A stretch of 64,000 nt of DNA from Candidatus Bathyarchaeia archaeon (GTDB lineage: Archaea; Thermoproteota; Bathyarchaeia; Bathyarchaeales; Bathycorpusculaceae): the NCBI GenBank assembly GCA_050010515.1, contig JBEKKX010000002.1:37176-101175 (forward strand). The letters run 5' to 3'. The notes under the pieces were generated by a model that searched no databases, was not told the origin of the DNA, and was given only the letters and a program-made list of their open reading frames with translations. The translations under genes and the position numbers were made by a program. Shown one piece after another: positions 12,932 to 47,881 of the stretch (position 1 is the stretch's first letter; each line of letters starts with the position of its first letter).

Positions 12932-13026
12932 ATGAACACAAGATACGTCGGCGATTTATTTTAACTATGCCGTATTCTGCTTGAAAAAAGCAAGCAATTT
13001 AAGGTTTAACCGCAACATTACAAGGT

Positions 13027-13881
13027 ATGTTTGTTCCACGAAAAATTCTGGAAGAGAAGCTAAGGCAAATACTCGCGGAAGACATCGGGCAAGGCGACGT
13101 AACAGCCCAAGCAATTATTCCTTCAAACTTAAAGGTAAAGGCAATAGTTATTGCTAAAGAAGAAGGCATAGCGGCTGGAATAGAAGAAACAATCATTCTC
13201 GCTGAATATTTAGGATTAAAAGTTAAAGCTAAAGTTGTTGACGGGGAAAAAATAAAGAATAAACAAGTATTAATGGAAATTTCAGGAGATGCCCAAACCA
13301 TTCTCTCGGCTGAGAGAACCATGCTAAATCTTCTTTCACGAATGAGCGGCATCGCAACCGCCACACGAACGTTAACAACAAAACTTGAAAAAGCAGGTTC
13401 TAAAGCAAAAATCGCTGCGACACGTAAATCGGCGCCTGGATTGCTTTATTTTGATAAAAAAGCAGTAACCATAGGAAGCGGAGATCCACATAGGCTTCAC
13501 TTGGATGATATGATTTTGATTAAAGACAATCATCTAGTAATAGTCGGAAGCGTTGAGGATGCGGTTAAAAAAGCAAAAGCGAACGCTTCTTTTAGCAAAA
13601 AAATTGAGGTGGAAGTTACAAAAGCTGAGGATGCAATGCAGGCGGCTAAGGCAGGAGCAGATATTATAATGCTTGATAATTTTTCGCCTAAACAGGCTAA
13701 GGATGCAGGCGAAATGTTAAAGAAAGCCGGGTTTGCCAATGTGCTTTTGGAAGTAAGCGGTAAAATTACAGGCAAGAACCTTTTGGAGTACGCGGCAGCG
13801 CAAGTTGACATTATAAGCATAGGAGAGCTGACTCATAGCGTTAAAGCATTAGATATAAGTTTAGAGGTTGAGAGATATTAG
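13027..13881 (+). CDS. nadC: nicotinate-nucleotide diphosphorylase (carboxylating)
   Basis: EDIGQGDVT, SGIAT, TRKS, IKDNH, IEVEV, IMLDNF. Confidence 0.97.
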   Translation: MFVPRKILEEKLRQILAEDIGQGDVTAQAIIPSNLKVKAIVIAKEEGIAAGIEETIILAEYLGLKVKAKVVDGEKIKNKQVLMEISGDAQTILSAERTMLNLLSRMSGIATATRTLTTKLEKAGSKAKIAATRKSAPGLLYFDKKAVTIGSGDPHRLHLDDMILIKDNHLVIVGSVEDAVKKAKANASFSKKIEVEVTKAEDAMQAAKAGADIIMLDNFSPKQAKDAGEMLKKAGFANVLLEVSGKITGKNLLEYAAAQVDIISIGELTHSVKALDISLEVERY

Positions 13882-14412
13882 CCATACTTCTATTATTGCG
13901 CTTACAATAAGTATGGCAGCGCAGATTCCTATTAGTATTGCAGTGTTTTTTAGTTCAAGCCATCGCCGTTGCATTAGTCTGCGGGTCAGCCAAATGCCTT
14001 CTGCTATTGCAGTTGAATAGGCAGTGAATTCTAGCCAGAACACGGGTGTTAACACTAAGCTTAGCAGTTCTATCCATACGGGATAGCCTTGTACGGAAGC
14101 TATAGCCCCAAGTGCAAGGCCAGTATTACCCAGTATTATAAATCCTATTATAGGCCCAATTAAAGGAACAAACATTACCAAACAGATTGAGAAATTATTG
14201 ATGAAAACATATTCTGTTAAGCTGCCATTGGACTTATGCGTATTAAGAGTCGCGTTTAAACCGTTACTTATTGACGTTGCGTCTTGATGGCTAAGAGGTA
14301 TATAGCTTCCGATAACCGTGACTATGAATGCAAGTATGAAAATTATTATGATTGAGTAGATTCTTTTGCGTTTTGATGAAGCATTCGTCCAAAAGGACAA
14401 ATCAAGTTTCAT
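13861..14412 (-). CDS. SpoIIM-like membrane protein
   Basis: VFINN, N-G pattern, WLEF, SAIIE; four TM helices. Confidence 0.7.
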   Translation of the reverse strand: MKLDLSFWTNASSKRKRIYSIIIIFILAFIVTVIGSYIPLSHQDATSISNGLNATLNTHKSNGSLTEYVFINNFSICLVMFVPLIGPIIGFIILGNTGLALGAIASVQGYPVWIELLSLVLTPVFWLEFTAYSTAIAEGIWLTRRLMQRRWLELKNTAILIGICAAILIVSAIIEVWLISLNL

Positions 14413-14423
14413 TGTATGCCTTC

Positions 14424-15116
14424 TTAGTTTGTGAGTTTAATTTTTAAGGTGCGGAATCCTCGTGCACAAGGGTTTAGCGTTTCTAATAATTTAACCTTTG
14501 TTAAAACTCTTTCAACATCAACGGCGTAGCCGCGTACATCATGCTCAGCCGCTATAAGCGAGTGAAGGTACACGCGGTCTTCTTGCACTATTGGTTGACA
14601 CATTAAAGGTAAACCTAGCAAAACAGGCTCTTTTTGGTCTACCGCTTTTTTGCAAGCAAACAGAATTGCTTCTGCACCAGCCGTTAACTCTGCGATACGG
14701 ACAGGAACACTTTCTTTACCAATAGCCAACACGTCCACATCATGGATCCGTTTGATTTCGCCAGCAATTTTCCGTAGTCTAGGCAAAATCTTCAAAATGT
14801 TTTGTCGCCCTGTTCTAGATGTGCGCAAGTTTGAAAGCTCAACTGGTGATAGCTCCTCAATGGAGACTCCGCCAAGCGACAGATCCAAATGCACAACATC
14901 AGCCTTCATTTTATCAAGCAAGCTTCTGCAAAGCTCAGCCTCATGCACTATCACTTCAAAGCCGCTTTCAACTTCTCTAAAAATTGGTTCAGCCAACCTG
15001 AAAGATGGCTCCCTGTACGGTGAATTAACCAACACTGAAACAGATGCGACAAGGTACAGTGGCTTAAACTGCGGGTCTAATATTGCTGCTGCAGAATCCG
15101 CCGATATAACTCTCAA
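14424..15116 (-). CDS. DUF4152 family protein
   Basis: ADSAAAILD, VVHLDLSLGG, AIGKESVPVRIAELTAG. Confidence 0.8.
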   Translation of the reverse strand: MRVISADSAAAILDPQFKPLYLVASVSVLVNSPYREPSFRLAEPIFREVESGFEVIVHEAELCRSLLDKMKADVVHLDLSLGGVSIEELSPVELSNLRTSRTGRQNILKILPRLRKIAGEIKRIHDVDVLAIGKESVPVRIAELTAGAEAILFACKKAVDQKEPVLLGLPLMCQPIVQEDRVYLHSLIAAEHDVRGYAVDVERVLTKVKLLETLNPCARGFRTLKIKLTN

Positions 15117-15155
15117 GTCTTACACCTAACAATAATAGTAGTTAAGCAGAAGAAA

Positions 15156-15797
15156 TTAGGTTTCCTGTTCACAGTTGCCCTTCGATTTTAAGCCTGTGGC
15201 TAAAAGGTACATTTCAGAGCTTTTAGCTCGGCTTGCCTGAGGCTTCACTATCTTAACTGTTTCAAAAAGATTCTTTGCTGTTTGGATAAAATCGTTGAGC
15301 AAGTTACCTTCAAAAACCTTAACAAAAAAGTTCCCTTTGGGCTTAAGTAGGCATTGAGCTATTTCTAATGCTTTAGTTGCTAAGTCAATTTGTCTTGCGT
15401 GGTCAACTTCCCAAACGCCAGTGATGTTTGGTGCAGCATCAGAAATTACTGCGTCCGCTTCGCGAGGCAGAAACGAGCGTATTTCCTCGACTATGCCTGG
15501 CTCAGTGAAGTCTGCAATTATTGTTCGAATGTATTCCTGCGTGAAGGGTTCGATTGGTTTTAAATCAACGCCCAGAACAAAACCGTTTTTTCCAGTCATT
15601 TTTCTTGCTGCTTGAATCCATCCTCCTGGCGCAGCGCCTAAATCCACTACTACGTCGTCTCTTTGTATGAAACCATATTTCGCGTTGGCTTGAACTAGCT
15701 TGTATGTGGCTCTGGAGCGGTAGTTTTCTTCTTTGGCTTTTTTGTAGTAGTATTCCCGTTTTCTATCTTGGATCCAAGCTTTCGGCAAGTGAATCAT
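15156..15797 (-). CDS. rlmE: 23S rRNA Um2552 methyltransferase RlmE/FtsJ
   Basis: YRSRATYKL, DLGAAPGGW, SDAAPNITG, KPQASR..SSEMY. Confidence 0.97.
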   Translation of the reverse strand: MIHLPKAWIQDRKREYYYKKAKEENYRSRATYKLVQANAKYGFIQRDDVVVDLGAAPGGWIQAARKMTGKNGFVLGVDLKPIEPFTQEYIRTIIADFTEPGIVEEIRSFLPREADAVISDAAPNITGVWEVDHARQIDLATKALEIAQCLLKPKGNFFVKVFEGNLLNDFIQTAKNLFETVKIVKPQASRAKSSEMYLLATGLKSKGNCEQET

Positions 15798-16191
15798 CCT
15801 CTTGTGTGCTTGGCGCGCTTGGACCCGCAGTAGTTGTGGCTTCTTTTCCTAAGCCGAGTATCCAATCTGTAAGTTTTGGGCAGCTTTTAGGTGAAAGTGC
15901 AGTTGTTGGGTCACACCTTTCATTGTCTGGGCAGAGTAAGCATGGGCAGTCAACGATGGTTTCTATCGATGCTGGAAGCCTTTTTGGGTAAAGCCTATAT
16001 GTCCATCTGCCTTCTTGCAGTTCTTTTTCTCTGCGGATTAGGCCTTTTTCTTCTAGTTTAATGGAGACACGTGAGCCTTCTCGGCTGCTTGCGCCTAGTT
16101 CACGCCATAAATCGGATTGAAGCACACCTTGATAGCCTGTGTTTACTACATAATGGAGTGCTTTCTGTTCAAGGTCATTACGTTTAGGCAT
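15763..16191 (-). CDS. tfeB: TFE beta subunit (RPC34-like wHTH + Fe-S domain)
   Basis: GVLQSDLWREL wHTH followed by PCLLCPDNERC...SPKSCPKLTDW 4-Cys motif. Confidence 0.8.
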   Translation of the reverse strand: MPKRNDLEQKALHYVVNTGYQGVLQSDLWRELGASSREGSRVSIKLEEKGLIRREKELQEGRWTYRLYPKRLPASIETIVDCPCLLCPDNERCDPTTALSPKSCPKLTDWILGLGKEATTTAGPSAPSTQEDDSLAESLDPR

Positions 16192-16237
16192 CTGATATCA
16201 ATCCAAATAATGCAATTAGAATATAAGCGTTGAATCC

Positions 16238-16276
16238 AGATAAAAATATGTTTCCGTAGCTGTAGCTGTAGATAAT
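16238..16276. repeat. attL-like site
   Basis: AGATAA AAATAT GTTTCC gtag CTGTAGCTGTAGATAAT. Confidence 0.75.
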
Positions 16277-16331
16277 ACATCAATTGACCCAGAATTCATA
16301 AAGCCTTTAACTTTTGAGGGGGGAATAAAGG

Positions 16332-17567
16332 ATGAGTGACTTTACGGAAGCAAATGAAGAGTGGATTCTAAAATTCGAATCTGGAAAAAATTGGATTCCT
16401 AAACTGCCAAGCCGACATACAAAACGCATTTTCATAAGAGCCTTACAGAAATACTGCCAAGCTGTCAAACAAAACCCAGATGAGCTAATCAACCTTAAAA
16501 TCGAAGGCTTGAAAGCTGTAGCAACAGAAAAGGAATTCGGAGCGGAACGACAGCTTGAAACCTACCTTAGAAACTCAGGTATGACTGACAGCGTTAAAGC
16601 TGAATCCAAGAATGCCATTATCAGCTTTTATAAACATAATTGGAGAAACCTTAACCCCAACGTTGCAAGCGATATAGAACCCCCAGAAGCTAAGAAGAGA
16701 ACCCCGACAATAGAGGATATACAAGCCCTCGATGCTAACATGACTACTTCACGGGATAAAGCGTTAGTTTGGTTTTTCCCCTCAACTGCCGTAAGAATTG
16801 AAACTTTAACTAAACTGACTAAAAGAGACCTAAAGCCGACAGGTGACAGCGAAGTTCCCTATTACATGGAAATTGAAAGCGCGAGATTAAAAGGCTCTGG
16901 AATTGGAAAATATAAAGGCATAAAGCAAATAACTTTCGTTCATAAGTTGGCATGGCAGAGATTAGAAGATTATTTTGCAGAAGCTAAACGCAAAGGCTAC
17001 AACTTAACCGATAGTTCGCCGTTGTTTATTGCATACAAAGGGCACTTCAGCAAAGAAGAAAAGAAATTAGCAGTTAAACCTAAAAGAATCCGAGTCATGA
17101 CTCAGGGAGCAATCAATCAAGTGTATGATAATGGGTCACTCTCCGCATGGAAAGATTTGGAACAGAAACGCTTTTCGCCTCATGATTTCAGAGATTTCCT
17201 TGAATCATCCCTTGAAAGTGCGGGAATAGACAAAAATCTCAGAGACCCTATGATGGCGCACAAGGTCAGGGGAGTAGATAAGCACTATTCAAGCCATGAA
17301 ATTTTGGAAATGAAAGATAAATACAAAACCGCATTGCCTTATCTGTTACCTCAATCTGTGGAGAAACTCAAAGCTGAAGCTGACAAAGTGAAAGAGGAAA
17401 ATGAGAAAAGAATTAAATTTCTTGAACAGCGACTTCTTGATAACGGTTTAAGTATCAATAAGATGCTCACAGACTTTAACCAGTTGAAAGCAACTTTTGA
17501 GGAACTGCAAAAACTGAAAGAGGAAGAGGAACGCAACAAACCAGAAAAGAAAAAGGTATGGGATTGA
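16332..17567 (+). CDS. tyrosine recombinase/integrase
   Basis: Catalytic R (TAVRIETL), HxxR (PHDFR), H (MMAH), Y (DKHYSS); C-terminal coiled coil. Confidence 0.92.
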   Translation: MSDFTEANEEWILKFESGKNWIPKLPSRHTKRIFIRALQKYCQAVKQNPDELINLKIEGLKAVATEKEFGAERQLETYLRNSGMTDSVKAESKNAIISFYKHNWRNLNPNVASDIEPPEAKKRTPTIEDIQALDANMTTSRDKALVWFFPSTAVRIETLTKLTKRDLKPTGDSEVPYYMEIESARLKGSGIGKYKGIKQITFVHKLAWQRLEDYFAEAKRKGYNLTDSSPLFIAYKGHFSKEEKKLAVKPKRIRVMTQGAINQVYDNGSLSAWKDLEQKRFSPHDFRDFLESSLESAGIDKNLRDPMMAHKVRGVDKHYSSHEILEMKDKYKTALPYLLPQSVEKLKAEADKVKEENEKRIKFLEQRLLDNGLSINKMLTDFNQLKATFEELQKLKEEEERNKPEKKKVWD

Positions 17568-17744
17568 CTAAACCCCTTTTTCCTCTTTTCTTTCTCTTCT
17601 TTTCTATGTTTTTCGAATTAAACAGTAGCTTAAAAAGCCATAAACCGACAAAAAGTCAAAAACGTACAAGGGTAGTAGGGCATAATCCCAGCCTAAAATT
17701 TTTAATGGAAAATTATTTAAACGACTTATAGCAATGCAACAATC

Positions 17745-17945
17745 ATGATAAGCATTATTGAAAATATGCTTGTAACATTGAGAGATAGAGAACTTGAACT
17801 TGCAACCCAAGAATATGCTAAACGATGCGATAAATTCACAGTTGAAACAAACGGCTTACTTCATCGTCATATTTCAGGCGTTTGCATTGTCCCCCATGTA
17901 GAAGTATCATCGAATAAAATTGCATTACAAGGCAAATACCTCTAA
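17745..17945 (+). CDS. possible small hypothetical protein
   Basis: 66-aa ORF inside the element, no motif; competes with a minus-strand ORF. Confidence 0.25.
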   Translation: MISIIENMLVTLRDRELELATQEYAKRCDKFTVETNGLLHRHISGVCIVPHVEVSSNKIALQGKYL

Positions 17946-18073
17946 ATATGCAGTCATTTATGGGTTAGTTTTATCTTTTCCATATGGCAAATCAGGTTCT
18001 TAATTCTTAATCGAAGCTATACAGATTTAAGATTGAGGGGTGAAGACCATTTAGAGGAATAGATGTAATAAAT

Positions 18074-18295
18074 ATTAACTCAGTTAACTTAAAATGCAGA
18101 GAATGTGGAAAAAACGCGAAATGGATAGTTATAGACCAAAGGTACGGCGTAGACCTCAAAGAAGTCGCCGCCGCCGCAACAAAAGGAGTAATAGCCCCCC
18201 CGTACAACCAATACTTTTACCCTCTTTGTGAAGAACATTTTAACTTCTTAAAAGAAAGTAAACCTTCCATGCATATGGATTATTATTATATTTAG
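18074..18295 (+). CDS. small CxxC...CxxH zinc-finger protein with no canonical start codon
   Basis: Open frame INSVNLKCRECGKNAKW...YPLCEEHFNFLKE...YYI*; no ATG/GTG/TTG before the finger; ATT assumed. Confidence 0.5.
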   Translation: MNSVNLKCRECGKNAKWIVIDQRYGVDLKEVAAAATKGVIAPPYNQYFYPLCEEHFNFLKESKPSMHMDYYYI

Positions 18296-18362
18296 GCTCA
18301 AATCCTAATTAAACAACTGATTAATTAAGCCAAATTGCCAAAAAAAAGAATGTTGTTGGTTG

Positions 18363-18890
18363 CTATTGAACTACAATAGTCACCAAATTACTGCTATACG
18401 TATTTCCATTGGCATCGGTAATAGTGCAATAGCCCTGATAAACTCCATTTCCAGCATTTTCATATAGGTCATTCCCATCTTCAAATTGATAGGTGACTGT
18501 ATTCGTATTAGGAAAATTAGGGTAGGAAGGGTTGAGTTGGCTTGGTGACATGTTATAGACGTTTTCTTGTCCATAACTGTAAGTGCCTGTATGGAATTCT
18601 ATGCTCTGAACAGGAGAAACATCTGATACTTGCAGAGTAAATTGAGCAGTTAAGGCTATTCCATTTCCTTGCGGTATTGTCACCGTTTGAGTGTCAGGTG
18701 TTAACGTAACAGTTGGAGAACTATTAGCGTTTGAATTTCCAGAATTGCCTACGTTATTTGCATTATTTGAATTATGTGATGACCTATCTAAAATTAGCAC
18801 TCCTACCAATGAAACAGCTAATATTACTATTATCACGACTGCCAAAATCATATATTTATTAATTCTTTTAGTTGATAATGGTTGAGCCAA
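18363..18890 (-). CDS. membrane-anchored surface protein with Asn/Ser linker and Ig-like beta domain
   Basis: N-terminal TM, NSNNANNVGNSGNS linker, C-terminal YCTITDANGNTYSSNLVTIVV. Confidence 0.75.
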   Translation of the reverse strand: MAQPLSTKRINKYMILAVVIIVILAVSLVGVLILDRSSHNSNNANNVGNSGNSNANSSPTVTLTPDTQTVTIPQGNGIALTAQFTLQVSDVSPVQSIEFHTGTYSYGQENVYNMSPSQLNPSYPNFPNTNTVTYQFEDGNDLYENAGNGVYQGYCTITDANGNTYSSNLVTIVVQ

Positions 18891-19000
18891 TTGTATAACC
18901 TCTTACCGTATGCACTATGCCTTTCTTTCAGCTTATAAGTTTTGGTTCTGGTAACTTCACGTCATACGGTTTTTTCTGTTAACTGCCGTCTGAGACAGCT

Positions 19001-19330
19001 TCAAACGGTAGGATTTTTAGGTCTGATGTCTGCGCCACATTTAGGACAGAAACTATTATCAGCGTCAATCCGACTGTTGCATTTTGGACATATAGCTAAG
19101 ACTTTTTGGGTAGATTGGGATTGGGGATAAACTATGGTGGGCGCTTGAGCTTGAGGTGGATAATTGTATATGACTTGTTTTGGATGAGGTGATGTAACCA
19201 AACCAACTATAAGCATGATAAATCCAATAAATCCGCAAAGTGCGGCAAATGGAATTAATATTATTGTTAGGAATAGAAAAATGCCAACAAACATTAGAAA
19301 AAGTCCACCAATGATTAGCCCAGCTCTCAA
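19001..19330 (-). CDS. two-TM membrane protein with C-terminal zinc ribbon
   Basis: Hydrophobic hairpin plus CPKC...FCPKCG. Confidence 0.85.
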   Translation of the reverse strand: MRAGLIIGGLFLMFVGIFLFLTIILIPFAALCGFIGFIMLIVGLVTSPHPKQVIYNYPPQAQAPTIVYPQSQSTQKVLAICPKCNSRIDADNSFCPKCGADIRPKNPTV

Positions 19331-19412
19331 ACTGATTCCCTCAGTTTGCTTTATGTGGACATTTTAAATATAAAACTTGTCATGGATATTACTTCTGATT
19401 AAAAAAGAGGGG

Positions 19413-20132
19413 TTAAGGGTTCGGTTGCTGTTGCTGTGGTTCCGTCTTAGCTTTAATAGGTATCACGTAATGCCCTTCTCGTCTTTCATTAACAACGTAT
19501 CTACCATTAAGACCCCTCATTTTCTGACCAATTTCGGCAAATTTGGAAGGGTCAAGCATTCGGTTTGGTTTAGCAATAATCAACTTAGCCTTACTGTCTA
19601 TTGAAATGTCGAGCAGATTCTTAATTTCTTCCAACTGTATGAGCGTAGGCTCGGCTAACTGTTTAAGATTTGCCTCTTCTTCTTTCGCTTGTTTTTCAGC
19701 TTCCACTTTCGCTTTTTCAGTTTCAACCTTCTCTTCTAACGGTTTGTTTTGAGTGTTATAGGCTCGGATTCTCACCACTTCACACGGGTCTTTATTTGGA
19801 AAAGCTGTAGCCATTTCTTCCGCTTCTTCAGATGGTCTGCCGAGAAGAACGTATTGTTTTACGAGTTCATTATGAACATCCTTCTTTTTCTGAGCTTTAA
19901 GCGCGTCTTGTTCTGCTTTCGTCATAGACCATTTTTTATATAACCTATCAAAAATTGCTTGTCCGTCCTTGCCTTGTTTATTCCAGAAAGCTATAAATTC
20001 GTCTTTGTGTTTCTCCATGAACTCTTTAACTAAAAAAGTAGCACTACCATAACCGCTGGGGTCAATTATTGAATCAAAACCTTCCCCTAACTCAGTTTCG
20101 AGAAATGTCGAAATACTGTGATTATTAGCCAT
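19413..20132 (-). CDS. hypothetical coiled-coil protein
   Basis: 239-aa ORF, E/K/A-rich central helix, TATA-like (minus-strand TTTATA) upstream. Confidence 0.75.
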   Translation of the reverse strand: MANNHSISTFLETELGEGFDSIIDPSGYGSATFLVKEFMEKHKDEFIAFWNKQGKDGQAIFDRLYKKWSMTKAEQDALKAQKKKDVHNELVKQYVLLGRPSEEAEEMATAFPNKDPCEVVRIRAYNTQNKPLEEKVETEKAKVEAEKQAKEEEANLKQLAEPTLIQLEEIKNLLDISIDSKAKLIIAKPNRMLDPSKFAEIGQKMRGLNGRYVVNERREGHYVIPIKAKTEPQQQQPNP

Positions 20133-20334
20133 GATTTTTTCACTTCCATTTTACTTATCTGAATACATACGATACACGACCCACATATAAACTTTTGGCA
20201 AGAAACAACATCTTCATTTAAACTTTTCCAAGCCAATTAATCAACTGATTAAATGAAATAGACAGCAAAATGTCAACGCCTCATCCATGCCAAAAAACAC
20301 AGAAATTTAACCAACTGATTAAAAAAAGCCCAAA

Positions 20335-20382
20335 AACGTCCGAACATGTGAACGTCCGAGCATATGAACGTTTTTTCATATG
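20335..20382. repeat. three tandem 16-bp iteron-like repeats
   Basis: AACGTCCGAACATGTG / AACGTCCGAGCATATG / AACGTTTTTTCATATG. Confidence 0.7.
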
Positions 20383-21088
20383 AAACACCCGACCAAAACC
20401 TAACCCCCCACTACCCACCCCCCGCACTAAGCGGGGCAAACCCCAAAACAACACCCTCTCTTCTTTTAGAACAGCCGAGAGTAAGATAGTAGATTCAACT
20501 GAGTAGATTAGGTTAGAATAGAATAGCTATGGGTAGGGAAGGGGTAAAAGGGGAAACCAATAGGCATACCCGCGCTAAGTCGTCCGACACACACACACCG
20601 CCCCCGCGCAACACACACATAACAAAAAATGATAAACAAATGCAATCATTAACCGAAAGTGTTAATCATCGAGCACCCAGAACGAACCAACAAAACAAGC
20701 ACATAGAACCCAGAAAAAGCCATGCCCATGTTTACCTTAATTCAGGAAAAAAAGATACTGCCTTGCGTTTTCATGAATCGAACTCCCCGCCTATCTGTAC
20801 CCCTGAACAACAGCAACTCCTGAGCGTCCGCCCTCGCTGGAAAAATACCCATTTTTTAAAATTTCTGGGTTCGATTTTTATGGATGGGATTCCCCATTTT
20901 ATTTGGCTTGGAAGAATTCCTTGCCCAAAATCATTTTTTGAGCAAAATCAAGGGTATGTAGCTTAAAGGCTAAATTGGGCTTGTTTTGCCAATTGAACAC
21001 GTGTTCTACAGTTATTTGGCATTTCAAGCCCAGAATAGCCTTTAAATATGGGTTTTGCATTGCTATAAACATAAACGAAGTTGGAAAA

Positions 21089-21316
21089 ATGACAGCAACC
21101 CCAGAAAAAAACCAAATAATAAAGCAACCGAAACTTAGCTTAGCACAACGCTTTAAGAAATGGCTAAATGGGGAATATTATAAGGCACCAACAAAAGAAG
21201 AAATACAAGAAGCTGAAGAGTTGGAGCAAGAAGCTAAAGAAGACGAAATAGAGGATTCGCAAGGGGACGGATTAATGAGCGAAGGGGATATTATGTTCCC
21301 TGAGGAGATTGAATAA
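21089..21316 (+). CDS. small acidic hypothetical protein
   Basis: MTATPEKNQ...FPEEIE; ATG at 21089 about 25 nt after CTATAAA; stop abuts the next ATG at 21317. Confidence 0.65.
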   Translation: MTATPEKNQIIKQPKLSLAQRFKKWLNGEYYKAPTKEEIQEAEELEQEAKEDEIEDSQGDGLMSEGDIMFPEEIE

Positions 21317-21346
21317 ATGAGCAACTTAGAAATAGCCAAAAAGCGA

Positions 21347-21385
21347 ATTATCTACAGTTGCAGAAGTGGATACAAATATGTATCC
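21347..21385. repeat. attR-like site
   Basis: ATTATCTACAGTTGCAG aagt GGATAC AAATAT GTATCC. Confidence 0.75.
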
Positions 21386-21404
21386 CTTAAAAAACTTGGA
21401 ATCC

Positions 21405-22439
21405 ATGAAAAACATGCAGAGCAAGCAGCGAAAAGATGAAAATTACTGTTTAGGCATAGAATCTTCAGCAGACGATTTTGGCGTTGGAATAGCCGCCTTC
21501 AACGGAGAAATACTCGCCAACAAATCCGACAGTTACATACCAGCAGAAGGCGGAATCCACCCTAGAGAAGCAGCAAGGCACCACTCTGAAGTTGCTGATA
21601 AAGTGCTAAGCGACGCCTTAACGGCGGCGGGCGTGAAGCCAAGTGACTTGTCGATTATTGCGTTTTCTCAGGGTCCAGGTTTAGGACCATGCTTGCGCAC
21701 AGGTGCTACTGTTGCCAGAGCTTTGGCGTCATACCTTGAGGTTCCGCTAGTGGGTGTTAACCATTCTGTGGCGCATATTGAGATTGGAAAACTAAAAACT
21801 GGCGTTGTTGACCCAGTGACCCTTTACGCTTCAGGCGGCAACACCATGGTGACAGCTTTTGAGGCTGGACGCTACAGAGTTTTCGGTGAAACCTTAGATA
21901 TTGCCCTTGGGAACTGTTTGGACGTTTTCGCTCGGGAAGCGGGTCTTAAGCACCGGAAGGGTTTGCCGCTTGGAGCTGCCGTGGAGCGGTTGGCAGCTAA
22001 TGGGAAAAGGCTGGTTTCTTTGCCGTATGTTGTGAAGGGCATGGACTTATCCCTTAGCGGCTTATTGACTGCGGCGACAGCTCAGCTGCATAGGGGCGAT
22101 TGCTGCTTGGAGGATTTGTGTTATAGTCTTCAGGAGAACGCTTTTTCGATGGTTACTGAAGTTACTGAGCGCGCGTTGGCGCATACGGAGAAGAAGGAGG
22201 TTCTGTTAACAGGAGGGGTAGCAGCCAATAAACGGTTGCAATCCATGCTTGCTGTTATCGCGGAGGAGCATGACGCACGGTTCAGTGTGGTTCCGCTTGA
22301 GTTTGCAACTGACAACGGCGCCATGATTGCTTGGACAGGCGTTTTAGCTTACAGGCACGGGGTAGTTACGCCTTTGGATGAGAGTTATGTGAAGCTGCGT
22401 TGGCGGGTGGATAAGGTGGATGTTCCATGGATACAGTAG
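21405..22439 (+). CDS. kae1: KEOPS tRNA threonylcarbamoyltransferase Kae1
   Basis: GGIHPREAA, GPGLGPCL, NHSVAHIE, SGGNT, DNGAMIAW. Start moved outside attR (ATG 21405 or 21414). Confidence 0.95.
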   Translation: MKNMQSKQRKDENYCLGIESSADDFGVGIAAFNGEILANKSDSYIPAEGGIHPREAARHHSEVADKVLSDALTAAGVKPSDLSIIAFSQGPGLGPCLRTGATVARALASYLEVPLVGVNHSVAHIEIGKLKTGVVDPVTLYASGGNTMVTAFEAGRYRVFGETLDIALGNCLDVFAREAGLKHRKGLPLGAAVERLAANGKRLVSLPYVVKGMDLSLSGLLTAATAQLHRGDCCLEDLCYSLQENAFSMVTEVTERALAHTEKKEVLLTGGVAANKRLQSMLAVIAEEHDARFSVVPLEFATDNGAMIAWTGVLAYRHGVVTPLDESYVKLRWRVDKVDVPWIQ

Positions 22440-23086
22440 TCGAGCAAACGCTGTTTAAGAAGGGTGCGGAAGCCAGCTTGTACCTTGCCGATTGGCATAG
22501 TCGAAAAGTAGTCATTAAGGTGCGAATTCCAAAAAGGTATCGTCCGGAGGCGTTGGATGAGCAGATTCGAAGTTACCGCACAGTGCATGAGCCGCAGTTG
22601 ATGCATGAAGCGAAAGCAGCTGGGGTGCCGACTCCGTTGATATACATGGTTAACGTTGCTGAAGCTTCGATTACGATGGAGTATGTGGAAGGGCAGCAGA
22701 TTAAGCAGCTACTGAACAAGGTTCCACAGGGTAAGCGGCGGGAATTATGCATGGCAATCGGCGAGTTAATCGGTAAACTTCACAGTCGTGGCTTAATCCA
22801 CGGCGACCTAACAACATCAAACATGATTCTGAGCCCTGAGGGCAAAATCTTTTTTGTTGATTTCGGTTTAGGCGAAAAAAATAGCGAGCTGGAGGCGGAG
22901 GGTGTGGATTTGCATTTGATGAAGCGGGCGCTGCAGAGTACCCATTACCAGTTCTGGGAAGAATGCTTCAAAAACGTGCTGTCTGGTTACTCGTCGGTTC
23001 TGGGTTCGGAAGCAGCGGAAAAGGTTTATGAGAAAATAAAGGAGATAGAGAGGCGTGGCCGCTATGTCGAGGAAAGAAAACAATAA
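22427..23086 (+). CDS. bud32: KEOPS kinase Bud32
   Basis: KGAEA, IHGDLTTSNM, DFGL, VDLHL. Confidence 0.95.
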   Translation: MDTVVEQTLFKKGAEASLYLADWHSRKVVIKVRIPKRYRPEALDEQIRSYRTVHEPQLMHEAKAAGVPTPLIYMVNVAEASITMEYVEGQQIKQLLNKVPQGKRRELCMAIGELIGKLHSRGLIHGDLTTSNMILSPEGKIFFVDFGLGEKNSELEAEGVDLHLMKRALQSTHYQFWEECFKNVLSGYSSVLGSEAAEKVYEKIKEIERRGRYVEERKQ

Positions 23087-23678
23087 TCAAACCTGTAGTC
23101 TCAATGGCAAGGTTGTCTTTTTTGCCACAGGCAACATTAACAAGTTCAACGAAGCCAGAAGCATCCTAAGCAGTTACGGGTTTGCAGTCGCAATGCTGCG
23201 CGTGAAGGGAGACGAGATGCAAAGCGACAGCCTGAAAGAAATCGCAAAAACAAGCGCCGTAAACGCGTTTAAACGAAGCCACTTGCCCATTTTCGTGGAG
23301 GACGCAGGCTTATTTATTGATGCCCTAAGCGGTTTTCCCGGTCCATATGCTGCTTACGTATACAAAACAATTCACAACAGCGGCATACTACGGTTGATGG
23401 AAAACGTGGCGGATAGGCATGCGAGATTCCGGTCAGTTATATCTTACTGTGACGAAACCCTTTGTGAGCCAGAGTGTTTTGACGGCGAATCCAATGGCGA
23501 AATAACCTTAACCGAACGCAGACAACAGGGAAAATCAGCTTTTGGCTTTGACCCTATTTTTCAGCCTGTTGGAAGCTGTAAAACATTTGCGGAAATGACT
23601 ATTGAAGAGAAGAACGGTTTCTCGCATAGAGCAATTGCCATACGCAAATTTGCTGAATGGTACAAAACAAAGCCTTGA
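23064..23678 (+). CDS. rdgB: XTP/dITP diphosphatase (Ham1/RdgB)
   Basis: ATGNINK, EDAGL, GFPGPY, FGFDPIF, KNGFSHR. Confidence 0.95.
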   Translation: MSRKENNNQTCSLNGKVVFFATGNINKFNEARSILSSYGFAVAMLRVKGDEMQSDSLKEIAKTSAVNAFKRSHLPIFVEDAGLFIDALSGFPGPYAAYVYKTIHNSGILRLMENVADRHARFRSVISYCDETLCEPECFDGESNGEITLTERRQQGKSAFGFDPIFQPVGSCKTFAEMTIEEKNGFSHRAIAIRKFAEWYKTKP

Positions 23679-23794
23679 ATAATTTATCAAATAAATACCT
23701 TCAAAACGCAACGGCAAAACGGAATCTGTCAGCATCATTACATAAAATGTTATATCTGCAAAGCAACTGAATGAAGAACACAGGGGAACCAGGA

Positions 23795-24162
23795 ATGAGT
23801 AAACAGAAAGCGGCAAACGGAAACCGGGTAAGTGTACTTGCGACAATATTTGCTGTTGTATTAATTGGATTGGCAAGTCTGGTTTACACTTATTACACAC
23901 CATTGATAATTCGAAGGATGCCGAAATAGCTGACCAGAGCAATCAAATAGCCAGTTTAAATGCCACAATTTTGGGCCTCAACAGTCAGGTAGCTGCTTTA
24001 AAGAGCCAAATAAGTGATTTGCAGGAAAAATACACAGCGAACCTTGTTACTGCACTTGGAGCTAATGAAATCTCAAGCTCTATAGCTCTGTTCTTTGTCA
24101 TCTCTACATATCTGGCACAGTTACCGATGCTGGTAAACAGTAGCTATGTGAGCCAGGGCTAA
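23795..24162 (+). pseudogene. frameshifted membrane-anchored coiled-coil protein
   Basis: MSKQKAANGNRVSVLATIFAVVLIGLASLVYTYY continues in another frame near 23900 as DNSKDAEIADQSNQIASLNATILGLNSQVAALKSQISDLQ. Confidence 0.6.
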
Positions 24163-42418: not shown

Positions 42419-43528
42419 TTAAATTTGCTTTAACGCTTCAATTAGTTTAGCGTTCATTTCTGGCAAGCCAACTGTAACGCGGAAGCAGTTTTCGTATTGG
42501 AGGATTTTGCCCCATTTCTTGAGCATTATGCCCCGTTTTAGTAGCTTCTCGTTAACTTGGTCGCAGGGTTTTTGTGTGTTGACTAGCAGGAAGTTTGCTT
42601 GTGAATCGAATGCTTGCACGCCATCTATTTCGTTTAGTGCCTTTATCAGTTTTCCCCGTTCGCGTTTCAGTTCCCTCACGGATTCCTTCATCAAGTCAAC
42701 ATTATCCAGCATCTTGCAACCCATCCTCAACGTGAAACCACTCACAGGATAGGGCAACGGAGTTTTCTCGGTCAAAATCTTTGCTAACTCGGGATTAGCC
42801 ACGGCGTAGCCAAGCCTCAGCGCAGCTAAACCGAAGGCTTTGGAGAACGTTCTGAGAATAATCATGTTCTCAAATTCACTTATTCGTGGCACCAGTGAGT
42901 AGTCAGCAAATTCACCGTACGCCTCGTCTAAGATGACGATTCCAGGAAAAGCTTTGGCTAAGGTTTCAACGTCTTCTACTTTAAACTGGGTTGAAGTCGG
43001 ATTATTGGGCGAACAAAGGTACAGTAGCCTAGTTTTATCTGAAAACTTGGTTAGCATCCCTTTAACATCAAGCTGCAAGTTGCTTAGAAGCGGCACCGCA
43101 AAGTATTTGCCTTCTTGCCGTTTAACGCAAAGTCTTGGAATAGCGAATGTCGGCGCAAACGAAACCGCACTTTCATCTTTCTCAACAAAGAGCCTAACTA
43201 TTCGGTCGATTAATTCGTCGCTTGCGTTACCAACAACGAGGCAGTCTTTTGGAGCCCCAATGTACATAGTAAGCTTTTCCCGCAGCTTTGCCTCTTCATC
43301 CTCAGGGTACATTCGCAAATCAATCTCATCAGCCAACTCTCTAACAAGTTTAGCTTGCTTCGCTCTTGGAATGAACAGGTTCTCGTTAAAATTTAGCTTG
43401 ATTATTTGTTTTGTAGGGACGCCTATTTGCTTCGCTACTGTTTCGGGTGAAGCTCCAGCAGTGTAGCAGTCTATTGCTTGCAGCTTCACAAGTTTGTCTT
43501 TAAGCCATTTCCTGTATGATGCGCTCAT
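42419..43528 (-). CDS. hisC: histidinol-phosphate aminotransferase
   Basis: KLNFNEN, SPNNPT, DEAY, RTFSKAFGLAALRLGY. Confidence 0.95.
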   Translation of the reverse strand: MSASYRKWLKDKLVKLQAIDCYTAGASPETVAKQIGVPTKQIIKLNFNENLFIPRAKQAKLVRELADEIDLRMYPEDEEAKLREKLTMYIGAPKDCLVVGNASDELIDRIVRLFVEKDESAVSFAPTFAIPRLCVKRQEGKYFAVPLLSNLQLDVKGMLTKFSDKTRLLYLCSPNNPTSTQFKVEDVETLAKAFPGIVILDEAYGEFADYSLVPRISEFENMIILRTFSKAFGLAALRLGYAVANPELAKILTEKTPLPYPVSGFTLRMGCKMLDNVDLMKESVRELKRERGKLIKALNEIDGVQAFDSQANFLLVNTQKPCDQVNEKLLKRGIMLKKWGKILQYENCFRVTVGLPEMNAKLIEALKQI

Positions 43529-44826
43529 TTTTCAAACCTTGCCTCTATCGCTTTGTAGTGATTGGGAAGATTCTCTGCTTCCGCCATAGCCTTAATGCAG
43601 TCTTTTACCCGTTCTAGACCCGTTCTTGAGCTTTCAACTATGCTTACTCGCCGCATAAAGTCCAAAGCAGATAATCCTGAAAATGACTGAGCGAAGCCGC
43701 CTGTTGGTAGTACATGGTTGGTTCCACTGCCGTAATCGCTTAGGGCAACTGGGCTGTATGGACCTATGAGTATGAGACCAGCGGTTAGTTTCTCTGCAAT
43801 CTCCTTGGGCTTAGCGGTCATGACTTCTAAGTGTTCAGGAGCAAACTGATTAACTAAACTGACCGCCTCTTCCATGCTTTTGCAGACTATTATGAAGCCG
43901 TATTTGGCTAGTGCCTCTGAGACTTTTTCGCCCCTTCCTGCTGAAGCGGCAACCGTTGCCAGATTCTCTTGAACTTGCAAAGCAACCTTTTCAGAAGTTG
44001 TTATGAGTCCAGCAACGCTGTCCCCACCATGCTCAGCCTGCGAAACCATATCAAAAGCTATGAACCGTGTATCAGCCGACTCATCAGCCAAAACGAGCAC
44101 TTCGCTTGGGCCAGCCGGCATGTCAATCGCCACATCTGTTGAAACCAGAACCTTCGCCGCTGTCACGTATTTGCTGCCTGGACCGACGATTTTTCGTACA
44201 GGCTTTATGGTTTTTGTTCCGTAAGCTAAAGCGGCTATGGCTTGGGCTCCTCCAACCTTGTAAACCTCATCTACTCCGCAGATATCGGCGGCGACAAGTA
44301 CGAGCGGGTTAACTTTGCCTTTGGCGTCTGGTGGTGAACAAACGACAATCCTTGGGACGCCTGCTACTTTGGCTGGAACCGCTGTCATGATAAGCGTGCT
44401 TGGGTAAGCGGCTTGTCCTCCTGGAACGTAGCAGCCGACGCTTTCGATTGGACGCAGAACAGTCTGAACCCATATGCCATCGCTCAAGGTCTTGATTTCA
44501 GTTTGGGTGAGAAGTTGCTTTTGGAAGGCGTTGACTTTTTCTTTCATGAATTTTAGAGCGGACACTTGTTCGAGGCTAGCTTTCTTGTAAGCTTCCTTGA
44601 TTTCTTCCGTCTTGACTTTAAGGGTTCGCAGGGTTAGTTCGGCTTTGTCAAATTTTAGGGCAAACTCAACCAGCGCACCATTGCCGTTTTCTTTAACTTG
44701 CTTTATGATAGCTTTAACGCTGTTTTCAACTTCTTGAACAGCCTTTTCATCCGCTTTTTGCCGTTTAAACCAATCTGGCGGTAGTGCCTCCGCTTTCCAG
44801 ACTCTCACTTGGGCTTGCCTTTGCAT
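43525..44826 (-). CDS. hisD: histidinol dehydrogenase
   Basis: YVPGG, GGAQAIAALAYG, IDMPAGPSE, SQAEH, GTNHVLPT. Confidence 0.97.
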   Translation of the reverse strand: MQRQAQVRVWKAEALPPDWFKRQKADEKAVQEVENSVKAIIKQVKENGNGALVEFALKFDKAELTLRTLKVKTEEIKEAYKKASLEQVSALKFMKEKVNAFQKQLLTQTEIKTLSDGIWVQTVLRPIESVGCYVPGGQAAYPSTLIMTAVPAKVAGVPRIVVCSPPDAKGKVNPLVLVAADICGVDEVYKVGGAQAIAALAYGTKTIKPVRKIVGPGSKYVTAAKVLVSTDVAIDMPAGPSEVLVLADESADTRFIAFDMVSQAEHGGDSVAGLITTSEKVALQVQENLATVAASAGRGEKVSEALAKYGFIIVCKSMEEAVSLVNQFAPEHLEVMTAKPKEIAEKLTAGLILIGPYSPVALSDYGSGTNHVLPTGGFAQSFSGLSALDFMRRVSIVESSRTGLERVKDCIKAMAEAENLPNHYKAIEARFEK

Positions 44827-45806
44827 GGGTTCTCCTCTCTCTTACTAATCTCGTCTAAAGCCAGCACCTGCCGCGGCTCATACACTACTAAGCCTTGAGC
44901 AAGCTTACGGATTTTTGGCAAGAGCTCAATTAAGCAGTCTTTCTCAATGACGGTGTTAACGCTGACCCAGTTCTCATCTGCCAAAGGCGCTATCGTTGGG
45001 TTTTTCAACGCTGGCAGTTCAGTGAGCAGTTTCTGCAAGTTGGTTTTTCGTACATTAACAAATATGTGTATTCTCTTTGACCCGTCCACGACGCCTTTTA
45101 GCAAGCTGACGATGTCGTAAATTTTTTCTTTCTTCTCTGGATCTTCTAAGGCTTTATTGTTTGCAATTAGCACGGCTGCCGACTGCATAACTGTTTCAAT
45201 GATCCTGAGATTGTTTGCTTCAAGGGTAGTGCCTGTTTCTGTCACGTCGATTATGCAGTCAGAGTTTTCTGGCGGTTTAGCTTCGGTTGCTCCGAATGAA
45301 AGGAAGATTTTTGCTCTTGGGTTATCGCCTTTTCTCCACCACGGCGTCACCATTATCGGATCTGCATCGCCGAAACGTTTCTTGTATGATGGGTTACTCT
45401 TAATATACTCTGAAGCAATGTTTAGGTATTCGGTTGACACGCGGAAGTTTTTGCCTCTGCTCCAAATATTCTCCATTATTTCAGACATGCCGCCGATTTC
45501 ACTCAAAGCTTCTGGCACAGCTGCGACTAAGCGGATTTTTCCATACTCAAGGTTCTGCAGCACTTCCACGTCGGTGCGTGTTTCGCGTATCCAGTCTTCG
45601 CCGGTGATGCCTATGTCTTGTAAGCCTTCGCTGACAAAGAACGGGATTTCTTGGGGTCTGAGGATTTTTAATTCAATTTTTGGGTCGTTTATGGTTGGTC
45701 GGTAGGTGCGTTCTTGACCTTGGACTTTATAGCCTGAACGCTGAAATATTTCAAAGGTTGCCTTTGATAGGGAGCCTGCTGGTATAGCAAATTTTACTTT
45801 ATCCAT
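44805..45806 (-). CDS. hisG: ATP phosphoribosyltransferase (long form)
   Basis: RPQEIP, GITGED, GATE, DVTETGTTL, C-terminal LPALKNPTI. Confidence 0.95.
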   Translation of the reverse strand: MDKVKFAIPAGSLSKATFEIFQRSGYKVQGQERTYRPTINDPKIELKILRPQEIPFFVSEGLQDIGITGEDWIRETRTDVEVLQNLEYGKIRLVAAVPEALSEIGGMSEIMENIWSRGKNFRVSTEYLNIASEYIKSNPSYKKRFGDADPIMVTPWWRKGDNPRAKIFLSFGATEAKPPENSDCIIDVTETGTTLEANNLRIIETVMQSAAVLIANNKALEDPEKKEKIYDIVSLLKGVVDGSKRIHIFVNVRKTNLQKLLTELPALKNPTIAPLADENWVSVNTVIEKDCLIELLPKIRKLAQGLVVYEPRQVLALDEISKREENPCKGKPK

Positions 45807-46063
45807 AATTTTTCACCTAAATTTTTAGAGAAACCTCTAAGGGTTTTTTGTTTTGATAAAACGGTTTTTTGAAGGAATACGCCCAATATCAAGTAGCTTT
45901 TCGTGTTTAGACTTGAACGGTTTGGATTGCTTTTACTCTTAATGAACGCAATCGCCTTGTATGAACGCAATCCCTCATCATTTACCACTGAAAGACACCT
46001 AAATGCCTGACTTCCTAATAAACTGTTTTCCTAATATTAAACTGTCGAAACGCTAAAAAGGCA

Positions 46064-46651
46064 TTAAACTGAAGGCGGCTTCCGTTTTTTAATTTCAAAA
46101 ACCAGCGGCGGCGCCGAATTTCGTGTTTCTAACTCTACACTTAAGAGTCCTTCCATGATGCCCTTCCAAATTTCGCAATCGTTAATAAATGGAGTTTTCA
46201 AAAGCAAAAACTTGTCTTTCAAATAGAAATCTCCGAATCCCTGCACTTTCAGCCGTTCAAATATCTTTTCCCAATTTTTCTGTTCGTTTGCTTCAATTCC
46301 TAGCGTTGATTGGATAGAAACCTTTAGGGCATCACCCATCCTTTCACCAATCTCACGCCACTTTTCCTTAGGAATCTGCTGTGTTAGTATATTGAGTAAT
46401 TCAACGTTCACAAGCGCTATGCGGCTTATTCCACAGTAGTATTCGCCAGGGAAACGCCAATCATAAATCATCATGCTTTCGTAAATGTCAAGCATTTTGG
46501 AGATGAGCGGTTTGATTCCATGCTCTTTCCCATCTTTAATTAACGATTCAATGAATTCTCTTTCGCGCTTTTCAAGGATAATCGTTGTTCTTTTTGTTTC
46601 TTCACTTTTCTCTTTTGGCACATCAGAGCTTCTTCGGTTGCTGTCCTGCAT
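46064..46651 (-). CDS. hypothetical protein, possible regulator
   Basis: 195-aa ORF; N-terminal KRTTIILE resembles a ribbon-helix-helix start. Confidence 0.7.
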   Translation of the reverse strand: MQDSNRRSSDVPKEKSEETKRTTIILEKREREFIESLIKDGKEHGIKPLISKMLDIYESMMIYDWRFPGEYYCGISRIALVNVELLNILTQQIPKEKWREIGERMGDALKVSIQSTLGIEANEQKNWEKIFERLKVQGFGDFYLKDKFLLLKTPFINDCEIWKGIMEGLLSVELETRNSAPPLVFEIKKRKPPSV

Positions 46652-46771
46652 ACAAACTATTTCTACATTAATATTTAATATGACTTGTGTATTCAGGAAG
46701 TATATTTATAGTCAAGTTTCTTTCTGAAAATTCAACGAATAGTTAAATAAAACAGGTTATGTCTCTAGAAG

Positions 46772-46829
46772 TTGCCGATGAAGAATCCAAAATGCTGATT
46801 GATGATGCACCCTGGGGTATCTGAGGCAA
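46772..46829 (+). ncRNA. box C/D guide sRNA
   Basis: TTGCC stem, C box cGATGA, guide, D' CTGA (46795), C' TTGATGA, guide, D CTGA (46821), GGCAA stem; TTAAATAA about 25 nt upstream. Confidence 0.85.
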
Positions 46830-46831
46830 AC

Positions 46832-47068
46832 TTACATTGTTATTAGCTTCTTTCTGATAAGGAACAGCATGGATACCATGCCTACTATAAATAGGATAAG
46901 GCCAGCGCCTATTGAGACAAAATAGTGTATTTTAAGGATATGCACCATGACGTACGGAACGTAAGTTGGACCGACGAAGATAAGAAGCATTGATAAAATT
47001 ACCAGCGTGATTCTCCAGAATTTCGAATATATGCCAGTAACATTTAGGTTTTCTTCATTTTCAGTCAT
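46832..47068 (-). CDS. small two-TM membrane protein
   Basis: LIFVGPTYVPY hairpin; downstream of the PAC2 gene. Confidence 0.75.
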   Translation of the reverse strand: MTENEENLNVTGIYSKFWRITLVILSMLLIFVGPTYVPYVMVHILKIHYFVSIGAGLILFIVGMVSMLFLIRKKLITM

Positions 47069-47080
47069 GCAACATCCAAC

Positions 47081-47758
47081 TCATTGTTCTTCAGGTGCAT
47101 TGTTTTCTACTAAACCTTCTTTTATCTCTTTTCCTAAAGCCTTCATCAAAAACTTGAAAACAAGAAATCCAGCTTCGCGGTCTGCTCTAAAACCCGTCGT
47201 TGTTCCAAGCAAGCTAACCCCCTCCAGCTTCCTTTCCTTCGCCATCGCCAAGGTAAGCCCTGTTCCACCAACGATTCTGCCTTTGCTGTAAATAACCGCG
47301 CCTTTTTCCATAAACTCAGTTGCCAACCTCGGTGAAGTAGCGGCAATGTAAACCTGAGCTTTATCCTCAGCTATCGGTATCCCGCCCATGGTTACGATGA
47401 AATGGCAACCTAACGCTTCAACAAAATCAATCACTTCTTCACAAACCTCATAGTGAGCAACCACATCATCAAACGAAGGCTGAATTTCACCCGTCATTAT
47501 AACCAAATTGTTTTTCACCATAGGAGCATAATAAAACTCGTATCTTGGCAAGTGACATATACCCTTAGCATTTATTGAAACGTAATCTGGAAAAGAAGGC
47601 GAATACAACTCTGCAAAAGGCTTAGCATCACAGAACTTTATAAGAAGATGCGCCGCAATTCTGCCGACATTCCCAAAGCCGGGTAATCCTTGAACAAAAA
47701 ATGGGTTTTCAAGAGTCGGATTTGAAAGCTTACGCAAATACGTCTTATCCATCAGCAA
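47081..47758 (-). CDS. PAC2-family proteasome assembly chaperone
   Basis: GLPGFGNVGRIAA, VTMGG, IVGGTG. Confidence 0.9.
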   Translation of the reverse strand: MLMDKTYLRKLSNPTLENPFFVQGLPGFGNVGRIAAHLLIKFCDAKPFAELYSPSFPDYVSINAKGICHLPRYEFYYAPMVKNNLVIMTGEIQPSFDDVVAHYEVCEEVIDFVEALGCHFIVTMGGIPIAEDKAQVYIAATSPRLATEFMEKGAVIYSKGRIVGGTGLTLAMAKERKLEGVSLLGTTTGFRADREAGFLVFKFLMKALGKEIKEGLVENNAPEEQ

Positions 47759-47881
47759 ACATCCTTCGCCAAAGAAGTATAAGTCGCCTCTAAAATGCTT
47801 TTGCCGACAATGAAAAAGAAACTATTAATATTCGACGAATAAACTAATAGGATGCTAAAACAACCCTTATGGAATAAATAT

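Follow-up and report, generated by a model that had tools for sequence, protein, structure and literature searches.

The 64,000-nucleotide stretch of DNA analyzed here (the window; positions 37,176 to 101,175 of contig JBEKKX010000002.1, GenBank assembly GCA_050010515.1) comes from a peat Bathyarchaeia archaeon of the Bathycorpusculaceae. The host genome (G000) has a size of 2.38 Mb and is 98.5% complete, and the window lies on its contig C2. In the spacer between a tfe-like gene and kae1, the window carries a 5,130-bp insertion (measured as the spacing of two AAATAT copies) that encodes a tyrosine recombinase close to its left end. We consider it highly probable that this insertion is an integrated mobile element, which was inserted by its own integrase and which represents a reduced form within a family of 5–15-kb elements. 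Its ends carry direct repeats, and the empty site of relatives contains the repeat as a single copy, which defines a site-specific insertion with exact boundaries. All genomes and elements analyzed here are metagenome-assembled.

Ends of the element and its empty site

The left junction (attL core, 16238–16255) consists of the host half AGATAA (16238–16243), the putative 6-bp overlap AAATAT (16244–16249) and the element inner arm GTTTCC (16250–16255). The letters GTAG (16256–16259) separate this inner arm from a 17-bp outer arm (16260–16276), whose perfect 11-bp part CTGTAGATAAT (16266–16276) is located 16 nt past the overlap. At the right end, a second 17-bp outer arm (21347–21363) contains the perfect 11-bp part ATTATCTACAG (21347–21357), which ends 16 nt before the overlap. 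It is followed by AAGT (21364–21367) and by the attR core (21368–21385), formed by the element inner arm GGATAC (21368–21373), the overlap AAATAT (21374–21379) and the host half GTATCC (21380–21385). When we re-read the sequence, we found all end motifs of an initial annotation of this DNA in place, with the two outer arms complementary at 15/17 positions and perfectly so in their outermost 11 bp. The same annotation had described the joined site as fully symmetric. This is correct for the 6-bp inner arm (5/6) and for the outer arm but not for the intervening 4–10 bp, which are asymmetric; counted outward from the overlap, the half-sites agree at 20/27 positions.

The terminal pair is the longest of 90 inverted repeats (38 nt, 74%) returned by a repeat search of 15800–21800. 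We scored the ends using an anchored scan for a direct repeat and an 11-bp inverted repeat in fixed geometry, with the integrase start and the stop of the last open reading frame (ORF) as anchors. The element has a score of 23, a value that was not reached in 1000 shuffles of the 145 nt at the right end (null mean 16.7, maximum 21). We thus reject chance repeats as the source of the end structure. The letters next to AAATATGT differ between the two junctions (A compared with C before it, T compared with A after it), which places the exchange within AAATATGT, and the host letters up to AAATATGT at attL match the empty sites found in relatives exactly. The arms define a dyad axis in the middle of AAATAT, which favors a 6-bp overlap, most likely AAATAT itself. 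We propose that a Xer/Cre-like integrase inserted the element by conservative site-specific recombination of attP with attB, with strand exchange within the shared AAATATGT. The attP would span ∼60 bp and would be largely palindromic, running from an 11-bp outer arm over 10 bp and a 6-bp inner arm to the 6-bp overlap and from there into the mirror image.

The initial annotation had predicted an empty site AGATAA-AAATAT-GTATCC between the flanking genes, and relatives provide it. A search for the left-flank gene in 41 genomes retrieved 30 loci, 29 of them from other genomes, and both flanking genes are present as divergent neighbors in 26 of these 29. All 21 same-genus loci containing both genes have an uninterrupted tfe-like/kae1 spacer of 45–145 nt with a single core, and the exact predicted 18-mer is found in seven of them. 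Conservation of ATAAAAATATGTAT extends to further families of the order (L027 and L029). We also aligned contigs from four peat-metagenome runs (X4, X10, X12, and X19) to positions 15700–21900. One X19 contig fuses 16243 to 21374, with 8 letters shared, and the empty-site sequence can be read from loose contig ends in X12 and X19. In one X10 contig, both ends are retained, with 1,823 letters of different sequence between positions 16378 and 21339, corresponding to an ∼2-kb variant at the same site.

These comparisons also bear on the idea that the segment is an invertible or regulatory switch, in which the integrase would flip 5 kb of DNA and thereby control kae1 or its own expression. Inverted repeats at the ends and a recombinase inside would suit such a switch, but the contigs of the four runs contain neither the inverted orientation nor a strand-change joint, the whole segment is missing in relatives, and the direct-repeat cores fit integration and excision rather than inversion. 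We regard a switch as barely credible.

The integrase and a shared att architecture

The integrase gene (16332–17567, + strand) encodes a two-domain tyrosine recombinase of 411 amino acids. Residues R155, K187, R287, H310, and Y319 do not vary among 28 aligned homologues, and position 284 is a histidine in this protein and histidine or glutamine across the family. Our AlphaFold model (pLDDT 85.4) reveals a helical core-binding domain (residues 3–102), a catalytic domain (residues 127–338), and an extra, long C-terminal helix (residues 343–401). A structural search with Foldseek returned XerA (PDB IDs 4a8e and 5hxy), IntI, XerH, and Cre (probability 1.00, E 4e-8 to 1e-5). An integrase profile likewise matches archaeal XerA (4a8e, E 9e-4), and a PDB sequence search with the single protein returned no match. 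The invariant catalytic residues and the fold bear out the initial assignment as a tyrosine recombinase, and the model identifies the protein as a divergent, simple-type Xer/Cre-like enzyme.

Other integrase types were considered and rejected. A lambda-type heterobivalent integrase should have an extra N-terminal arm-binding domain, which is absent from the model, and the SSV-type (type A), in which integration at an internal attP splits the gene, is not compatible with an ORF that is intact at 411 amino acids and with a core located 88 nt upstream of the gene. We also rejected a host XerA acting on dif: the protein scores 28.8 bits against the NCBIfam XerA model (NF040815, cut-off 220), its two copies in the genome are both found within insertions, and the family occurs in 31/119 genomes of the genus (37/332 genomes of the host family). 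The best XerA-model score in genome G000 is 59 bits (contig C22), compared with the cut-off of 220, and this lineage may have a chromosome-dimer resolvase that is divergent or was not assembled.

Five elements have both junctions at the tfe-like/kae1 site, namely the window element, L033 (9.2 kb), L034 (5.06 kb), L038 (10.1 kb), and L039 (6.2 kb). The integrases of these same-site relatives are 65–80% identical and both ends are conserved; their cargo is unrelated. L037 and L059 have the left junction only, and the site is occupied in at least six genomes. A second family member is found in the host genome itself, on contig C5 (about 43185–47868; 4,670 bp), and its integrase is 51% identical. 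This C5 element ends in a 14-bp direct repeat and contains a 6-bp center bounded by 5-bp inverted inner arms, with perfect 11-bp arms of different sequence positioned 16 nt from the center. Here too, the direct repeats at the ends are matched by an empty site in relatives, which is located ∼45 nt upstream of a conserved gene encoding 426 amino acids, and a further family member occupies this site in another genome (L155). The genome thus has two family members, each at its own conserved site.

The end structure is formally like that of a transposon with terminal inverted repeats and a 6–8-bp target site duplication, moved by a tyrosine transposase with loose target preference, because both would show inverted repeats with a short direct repeat on either side. 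The same junctions are used in at least six genomes, however, even though the integrases have diverged by 20–35%, the similarity between attL and attR reaches past the duplicated block (14/16), and both copies in the host genome reside at conserved sites. We therefore consider such a transposon very improbable. The element had been put forward as small and either integrative or transposable; it is integrative and site-specific, and the repeated use of one site speaks against transposable.

The family geometry is defined by 6-bp inner arms and by 11-bp outer arms placed 16 nt from the overlap. When 18 distinct elements were analyzed by the anchored scan, 11 exceeded the maximum of 10 shuffles by at least 2, and for five elements assayed with 1000 shuffles each, no shuffle reaches the observed score. 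The anchored scan replaced an unanchored scan over 17 kb, in which the background was high (controls 17–22) and 7–8 of 24 loci were resolved. The half-sites agree at 15–21 of 27 positions in 12/13 elements, and the core lies 86–92 nt upstream of the integrase start in 10/14 resolved elements. From one element to the next, the outer arms change in sequence, yet the two arms of each element match, and they thus covary: the left outer arm of the window element is kept in L033, L034, and L039, and it covaries with the right arm in L038, the C5 element, L047, L054, L053, and L046. We infer from these sequences that the outer arms are functional. No outer-arm-like sequence is present in the host attB at the kae1 site, and thus the attP is complex and the attB simple. 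The arm and core spacing that the initial annotation expected for homologous integrases is found in four more same-site elements and in diverged members at other sites. Ends were not found for L036/L040 (integrase 61% identical, truncated), and the scan did not resolve those of L048, L049, L045, and L096.

The right-end gene and the content of the element

To define the gene content of the family, we clustered the ORFs of 24 loci and located only two widely shared families, the integrase (24/24) and a gene at the right end (18/24). In full-length members (9–15 kb), the right-end gene encodes a P-loop protein of 370–430 amino acids with weak Pfam matches to DUF87/HerA and AAA_22. Its profile matches HerA-type nucleoside triphosphatases (NTPases; E 1e-4), and a PDB sequence search with a single protein returned no match. 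The structural model (pLDDT 65.7, with a better core) has its best fold match in the genome-packaging NTPase B204 of STIV2/STIV (E 7e-8, TM 0.73–0.75) and also matches HerA; compared with viral models, the PH1 ATPase ranks first, followed by A32-like packaging ATPases. Based on the model, we assign the right-end gene as a packaging-type FtsK/HerA ATPase. The proposed family plan thus has an integrase at the left end and this ATPase at the right end. The best-matching folds are those of membrane-containing icosahedral viruses; unlike these viruses, the window element keeps a tail of 75 amino acids only, and no capsid protein was recognized in any family member. HerA-type ATPases are also found in plasmids and in defense systems. 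L033 contains, at 12932–13423, a Neck1/tail-completion-like gene (phrog_5, E 5e-11), an odd find beside a packaging ATPase of the tailless-virus type.

The window element contains in place of the ATPase gene a 75-amino acid ORF (21089–21316, + strand), which combines the start region and the acidic C-terminal tail of the ATPase and in which the ATPase domain is deleted. Equivalent ORFs of 71–77 amino acids, which align to the acidic C-terminal tail, are all that remains of the right-end gene in the window element, L034, the C5 copy, and L047. The upstream region and start codon of the tail ORF are 84% identical to the L033 ATPase gene. Matches at both the C terminus and the start thus point to an internal deletion, and sequence comparison identifies the window element as a deletion derivative of the 9–15-kb family with its packaging-type ATPase, which accounts for its small size. 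Lacking the ATPase domain, the element cannot be an autonomous virus or plasmid. Pairwise dN/dS ratios (nonsynonymous to synonymous substitution rates) of the tail ORF range from 0.09 to 0.26 among the four mini-elements and one full-length tail (dS could be estimated in 6/10 pairs), indicating that the ORF is under purifying selection, and the integrases of all four mini-elements are intact. A strict regular expression for the tail peptide matched 9/90 loci, and tblastn was used instead.

Between the integrase and the tail ORF, the window element carries a small ORF of 66 amino acids (17745–17945, + strand), which has no Pfam or PHROG match, is not common to other elements, and may not be a gene. 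Three ORFs follow on the − strand. The first encodes 175 amino acids with an N-terminal membrane or signal helix (18363–18890) and belongs to no Pfam, PHROG, or NCBIfam family, and the second encodes 109 amino acids with membrane helices and a zinc ribbon (19001–19330; Pfam Zn_Ribbon_1, E 7.7e-8). The third encodes a 239-amino acid protein (19413–20132) that is common to the C5 element (33% identity over 63 residues to a 209-amino acid protein, pairwise E 2e-11); it has 16 homologues only, none of them informatively named. Overall, searches of the window cargo against Pfam, PHROGs, and NCBIfam returned nothing usable, as did searches of L038 ORFs of at least 70 amino acids against Pfam and PHROGs. 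In agreement with the initial annotation, no replication, conjugation, or capsid gene could be recognized in the window element with the three databases. A capsid gene was not recognized in any family member either, apart from the phrog_5 match in L033, and a PDB profile search with two families adjoining the ATPase (A4 and A5, capsid candidates) returned no match. Of the capsid and virion genes by which a provirus would be recognized, relatives thus show only the packaging-type ATPase and the L033 match.

The 239-amino acid protein gene is followed by a non-coding region (20133–21088), C/A-rich on the + strand, with ∼950 bp devoid of a credible ORF and a strong C-over-G skew (GC skew down to −0.33). 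Segments 20150–20206 and 20399–20631 are conserved in the C5 element, and 20185–20283 is conserved in L054; parts of the region are thus shared by elements with unrelated integrases. It may serve as an origin or in regulation, or it may encode an RNA; a search of 14000–24000 against Rfam (E ≤ 0.1) returned no match. A hairpin with 30-nt arms (80% complementary) and a 23-nt loop is located at 20963–21045, just upstream of the conserved start region of the tail ORF.

A palindromic motif of the type TTAATCA-NN-TGATTAA is present in three copies, one at 18307–18324 and two in the non-coding region (20235–20252 and 20305–20322), and it is also found in eight other family members. A regular expression for the motif has 11 matches in the genome, which fall without exception within the two elements or at the starts of two contigs (C2:64–157 and C3:1089–1120). 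Metagenome contigs with other cargo break at 18327 and 20307, beside palindromic motifs, and the motif may mark module boundaries. The integrase 3′ end and the DNA downstream of it (17370–17685, coding for the C-terminal helix) are 83–87% identical at the DNA level to the C5 element and L047, although the integrases of these elements otherwise share 44–47% protein identity with the window integrase. This near-identity in otherwise diverged integrases points to module exchange between elements and to the mini-elements being mosaics.

Targets, mobility, and relation to known elements

The right-flank gene is kae1 (21405–22439, + strand; NCBIfam arch_KAE1, E 3.3e-146; Pfam TsaD, E 5e-80), as initially labeled. 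Its start is likely ATG 21405 or 21414 (+31 or +40 from the core), as supported by the family-model alignment and by relatives; the mechanically called ORF begins at GTG 21366, inside the att core, and runs across the att site. The left-flank gene (15763–16191, − strand) encodes a winged-helix, Cys-rich protein. The earlier label tfeB (TFE-beta/Rpc34-like) is weakly supported by Pfam matches to B-block_TFIIIC (E 2.9e-5) and RNA_pol_Rpc34 (E 0.05), and there is no NCBIfam match. In genome L026, which belongs to a different family of the order, the tfe-like/kae1 spacer contains an ∼0.8-kb insertion with small ORFs and without an integrase.

The insertion had been described as tRNA-independent, and a tRNA scan indeed finds no tRNA gene at either end or close by; the closest one lies at 28866. 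All cores that could be resolved are AT-rich and TATA-like: AAATAT and its flanks at the kae1 site, TTAAAGTATTT at the C5 site, TTTAAATATAAA in L047, L051, and L054, and others of the same type. A host ORF of at least 70 amino acids starts within about 30–80 nt of the core in 12/14 elements. Among 1,059 long ORFs of the host genome, TTAAAT, TAAATA, and AAATAT are enriched 1.7–2.2-fold at −45 to −15. We infer that the core is a promoter-like element and that the family integrates into host promoter boxes. The attB AGATAA-AAATAT-GTATCC would be such a box, conserved in the genus, TATA-like, and positioned ∼30 nt ahead of the kae1 start codon. Integration would leave the host box 88 nt upstream of the integrase gene and place an element-borne near-copy with one A-to-C change in front of kae1, which would thus keep a promoter-like sequence.

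The window element retains an intact integrase, intact ends, the 239-amino acid protein, the non-coding region with its operator-like palindromes, and the tail ORF. With these parts, it probably can still excise and integrate, and its current mobility is plausible; transfer would depend on something else.

A number of observations weigh against a mobile element of this kind or against parts of the proposal. The integrase scores below the Pfam threshold for PF00589 (Phage_integrase; 15.1 bits, threshold 27.1), although among its homologues, of which there are at least 142, most of those listed have a precomputed PF00589 match. Seven of the 18 anchored elements are not clearly above the null, and no excisionase was identified. 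The promoter profile is crude, as the first ATG was taken as the start. The empty sites come from other species or strains and hence prove insertion, not present mobility. No go-back joint of an excised circle or attP is present in the contigs of the four runs, which were examined as contigs and thus drop rare variants. Likewise, there is no convincing attP in the 66 metagenome loci with enough upstream sequence, and no circular contig, as judged by terminal repeats, among the metagenome loci. The depth of the element in X4 is ∼50, compared with 54–70 for exactly matching flank contigs, and thus gives no sign of episomal copies. Finally, the integrases of several close members are broken (a frameshift in L039; internal stops in G439, G477, and G022), and decay is therefore common in the family.

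The deleted ATPase domain, the missing circular junction, an element depth close to that of the flanks, and the broken integrases among close relatives could all be explained by a dead fossil, that is, by a decaying provirus remnant which an integrase inserted long ago and which is now immobile and fixed in the lineage. The window integrase is full length with a complete set of catalytic residues, however, and both ends are intact with perfect 11-bp arms. The tail ORF is under purifying selection among the four mini-elements, none of which has lost its integrase. The next relatives have an empty site, and in others it is occupied by different family members, suggesting recurrent colonization, and in X10, X12, and X19, the flanks are far deeper than the element. 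We thus regard a fossil as rather unlikely and favor an integrated mobile element that was inserted by its own integrase.

In pNOB8-type (type B) archaeal integrases, the gene stays intact on integration and the attP is located outside the gene; those described mostly target tRNA genes and have longer repeats. By this description, the window integrase resembles them in its intact gene and external attP. A review lists archaeal attB sites located between genes and, for XerA, a dif site of 11-6-11 layout (PMC8371274). As far as described there, archaeal XerA/dif resembles our system in having a two-domain recombinase, which is the best structural and profile match of the window integrase, and a 6-bp spacer between inverted arms. 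Unlike XerA, the window integrase is element-borne and has an extra C-terminal helix, and unlike dif, its target is a promoter-like box and its attP has outer arms. By its description in the same review, psiM100 of Methanothermobacter is a complete tailed provirus, unlike the window element (PMC8371274).

The closest known elements are cryptic integrated elements of Thaumarchaeota, which range from 2.6 to 98 kb, have att sites down to 8 bp, and are intergenic in 15/68 cases (PMC6563490). Like the window element, they are small, encode an integrase, are without recognizable virus or plasmid hallmarks, and have boundaries verified against the empty sites of relatives; by their description, they are set apart by host class and integrase family (PMC6563490). 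Neither a two-tier palindromic attP nor TATA-like cores nor a mini-lineage with an ATPase tail is mentioned in the parts of that study available to us (PMC6563490). A survey of Bathyarchaeia viruses, as far as its accessible part goes, reports tailed, filamentous, and spindle viruses and nothing resembling the window family (PMC10848311). Our full-text literature search did not turn up any account of this family or of archaeal integrases that target TATA boxes, although supplementary att lists may contain similar cases. The initial annotation had suggested a possibly undescribed family. The family indeed appears undescribed, but its kind, archaeal cryptic integrated elements, is already known, and tRNA-independent, short-core intergenic integration is documented in the thaumarchaeal study (PMC6563490). 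New here are the derivation by deletion from ATPase-bearing elements and the TATA-like cores near host gene starts.

A broader reading, which we offer tentatively and consider doubtful as a whole, combines these features. The 5-kb elements (window, L034, the C5 copy, and L047) would be no debris but would form an evolved, satellite-like lineage derived from small proviruses with a packaging ATPase. They would keep only the parts required for integration and recognition, namely the integrase, the two-tier att ends, the operator-bearing non-coding region, and a free 75-amino acid ATPase tail under purifying selection, and would swap integrase/att modules by recombination. The family would be specialized on host TATA boxes, with the att core doubling as integrase promoter and with the host gene and the integrase exchanging their TATA boxes.

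Taken together, three features lend the element moderate interest: a two-tier att site that is cleanly defined, targets that look like promoters, and mini-elements that may be satellite-like. For the Bathyarchaeia, an abundant class, it provides a compact integrase and an attP/attB pair mapped with precision, and the several att specificities built on one geometry represent natural "experiments" on the roles of the inner and outer arms and of the 6-bp overlap. If true, the targeting of promoter boxes with promoter regeneration would inform how archaeal elements pick safe sites, and a mini-lineage in which a packaging ATPase is reduced to its tail would inform how satellites arise.

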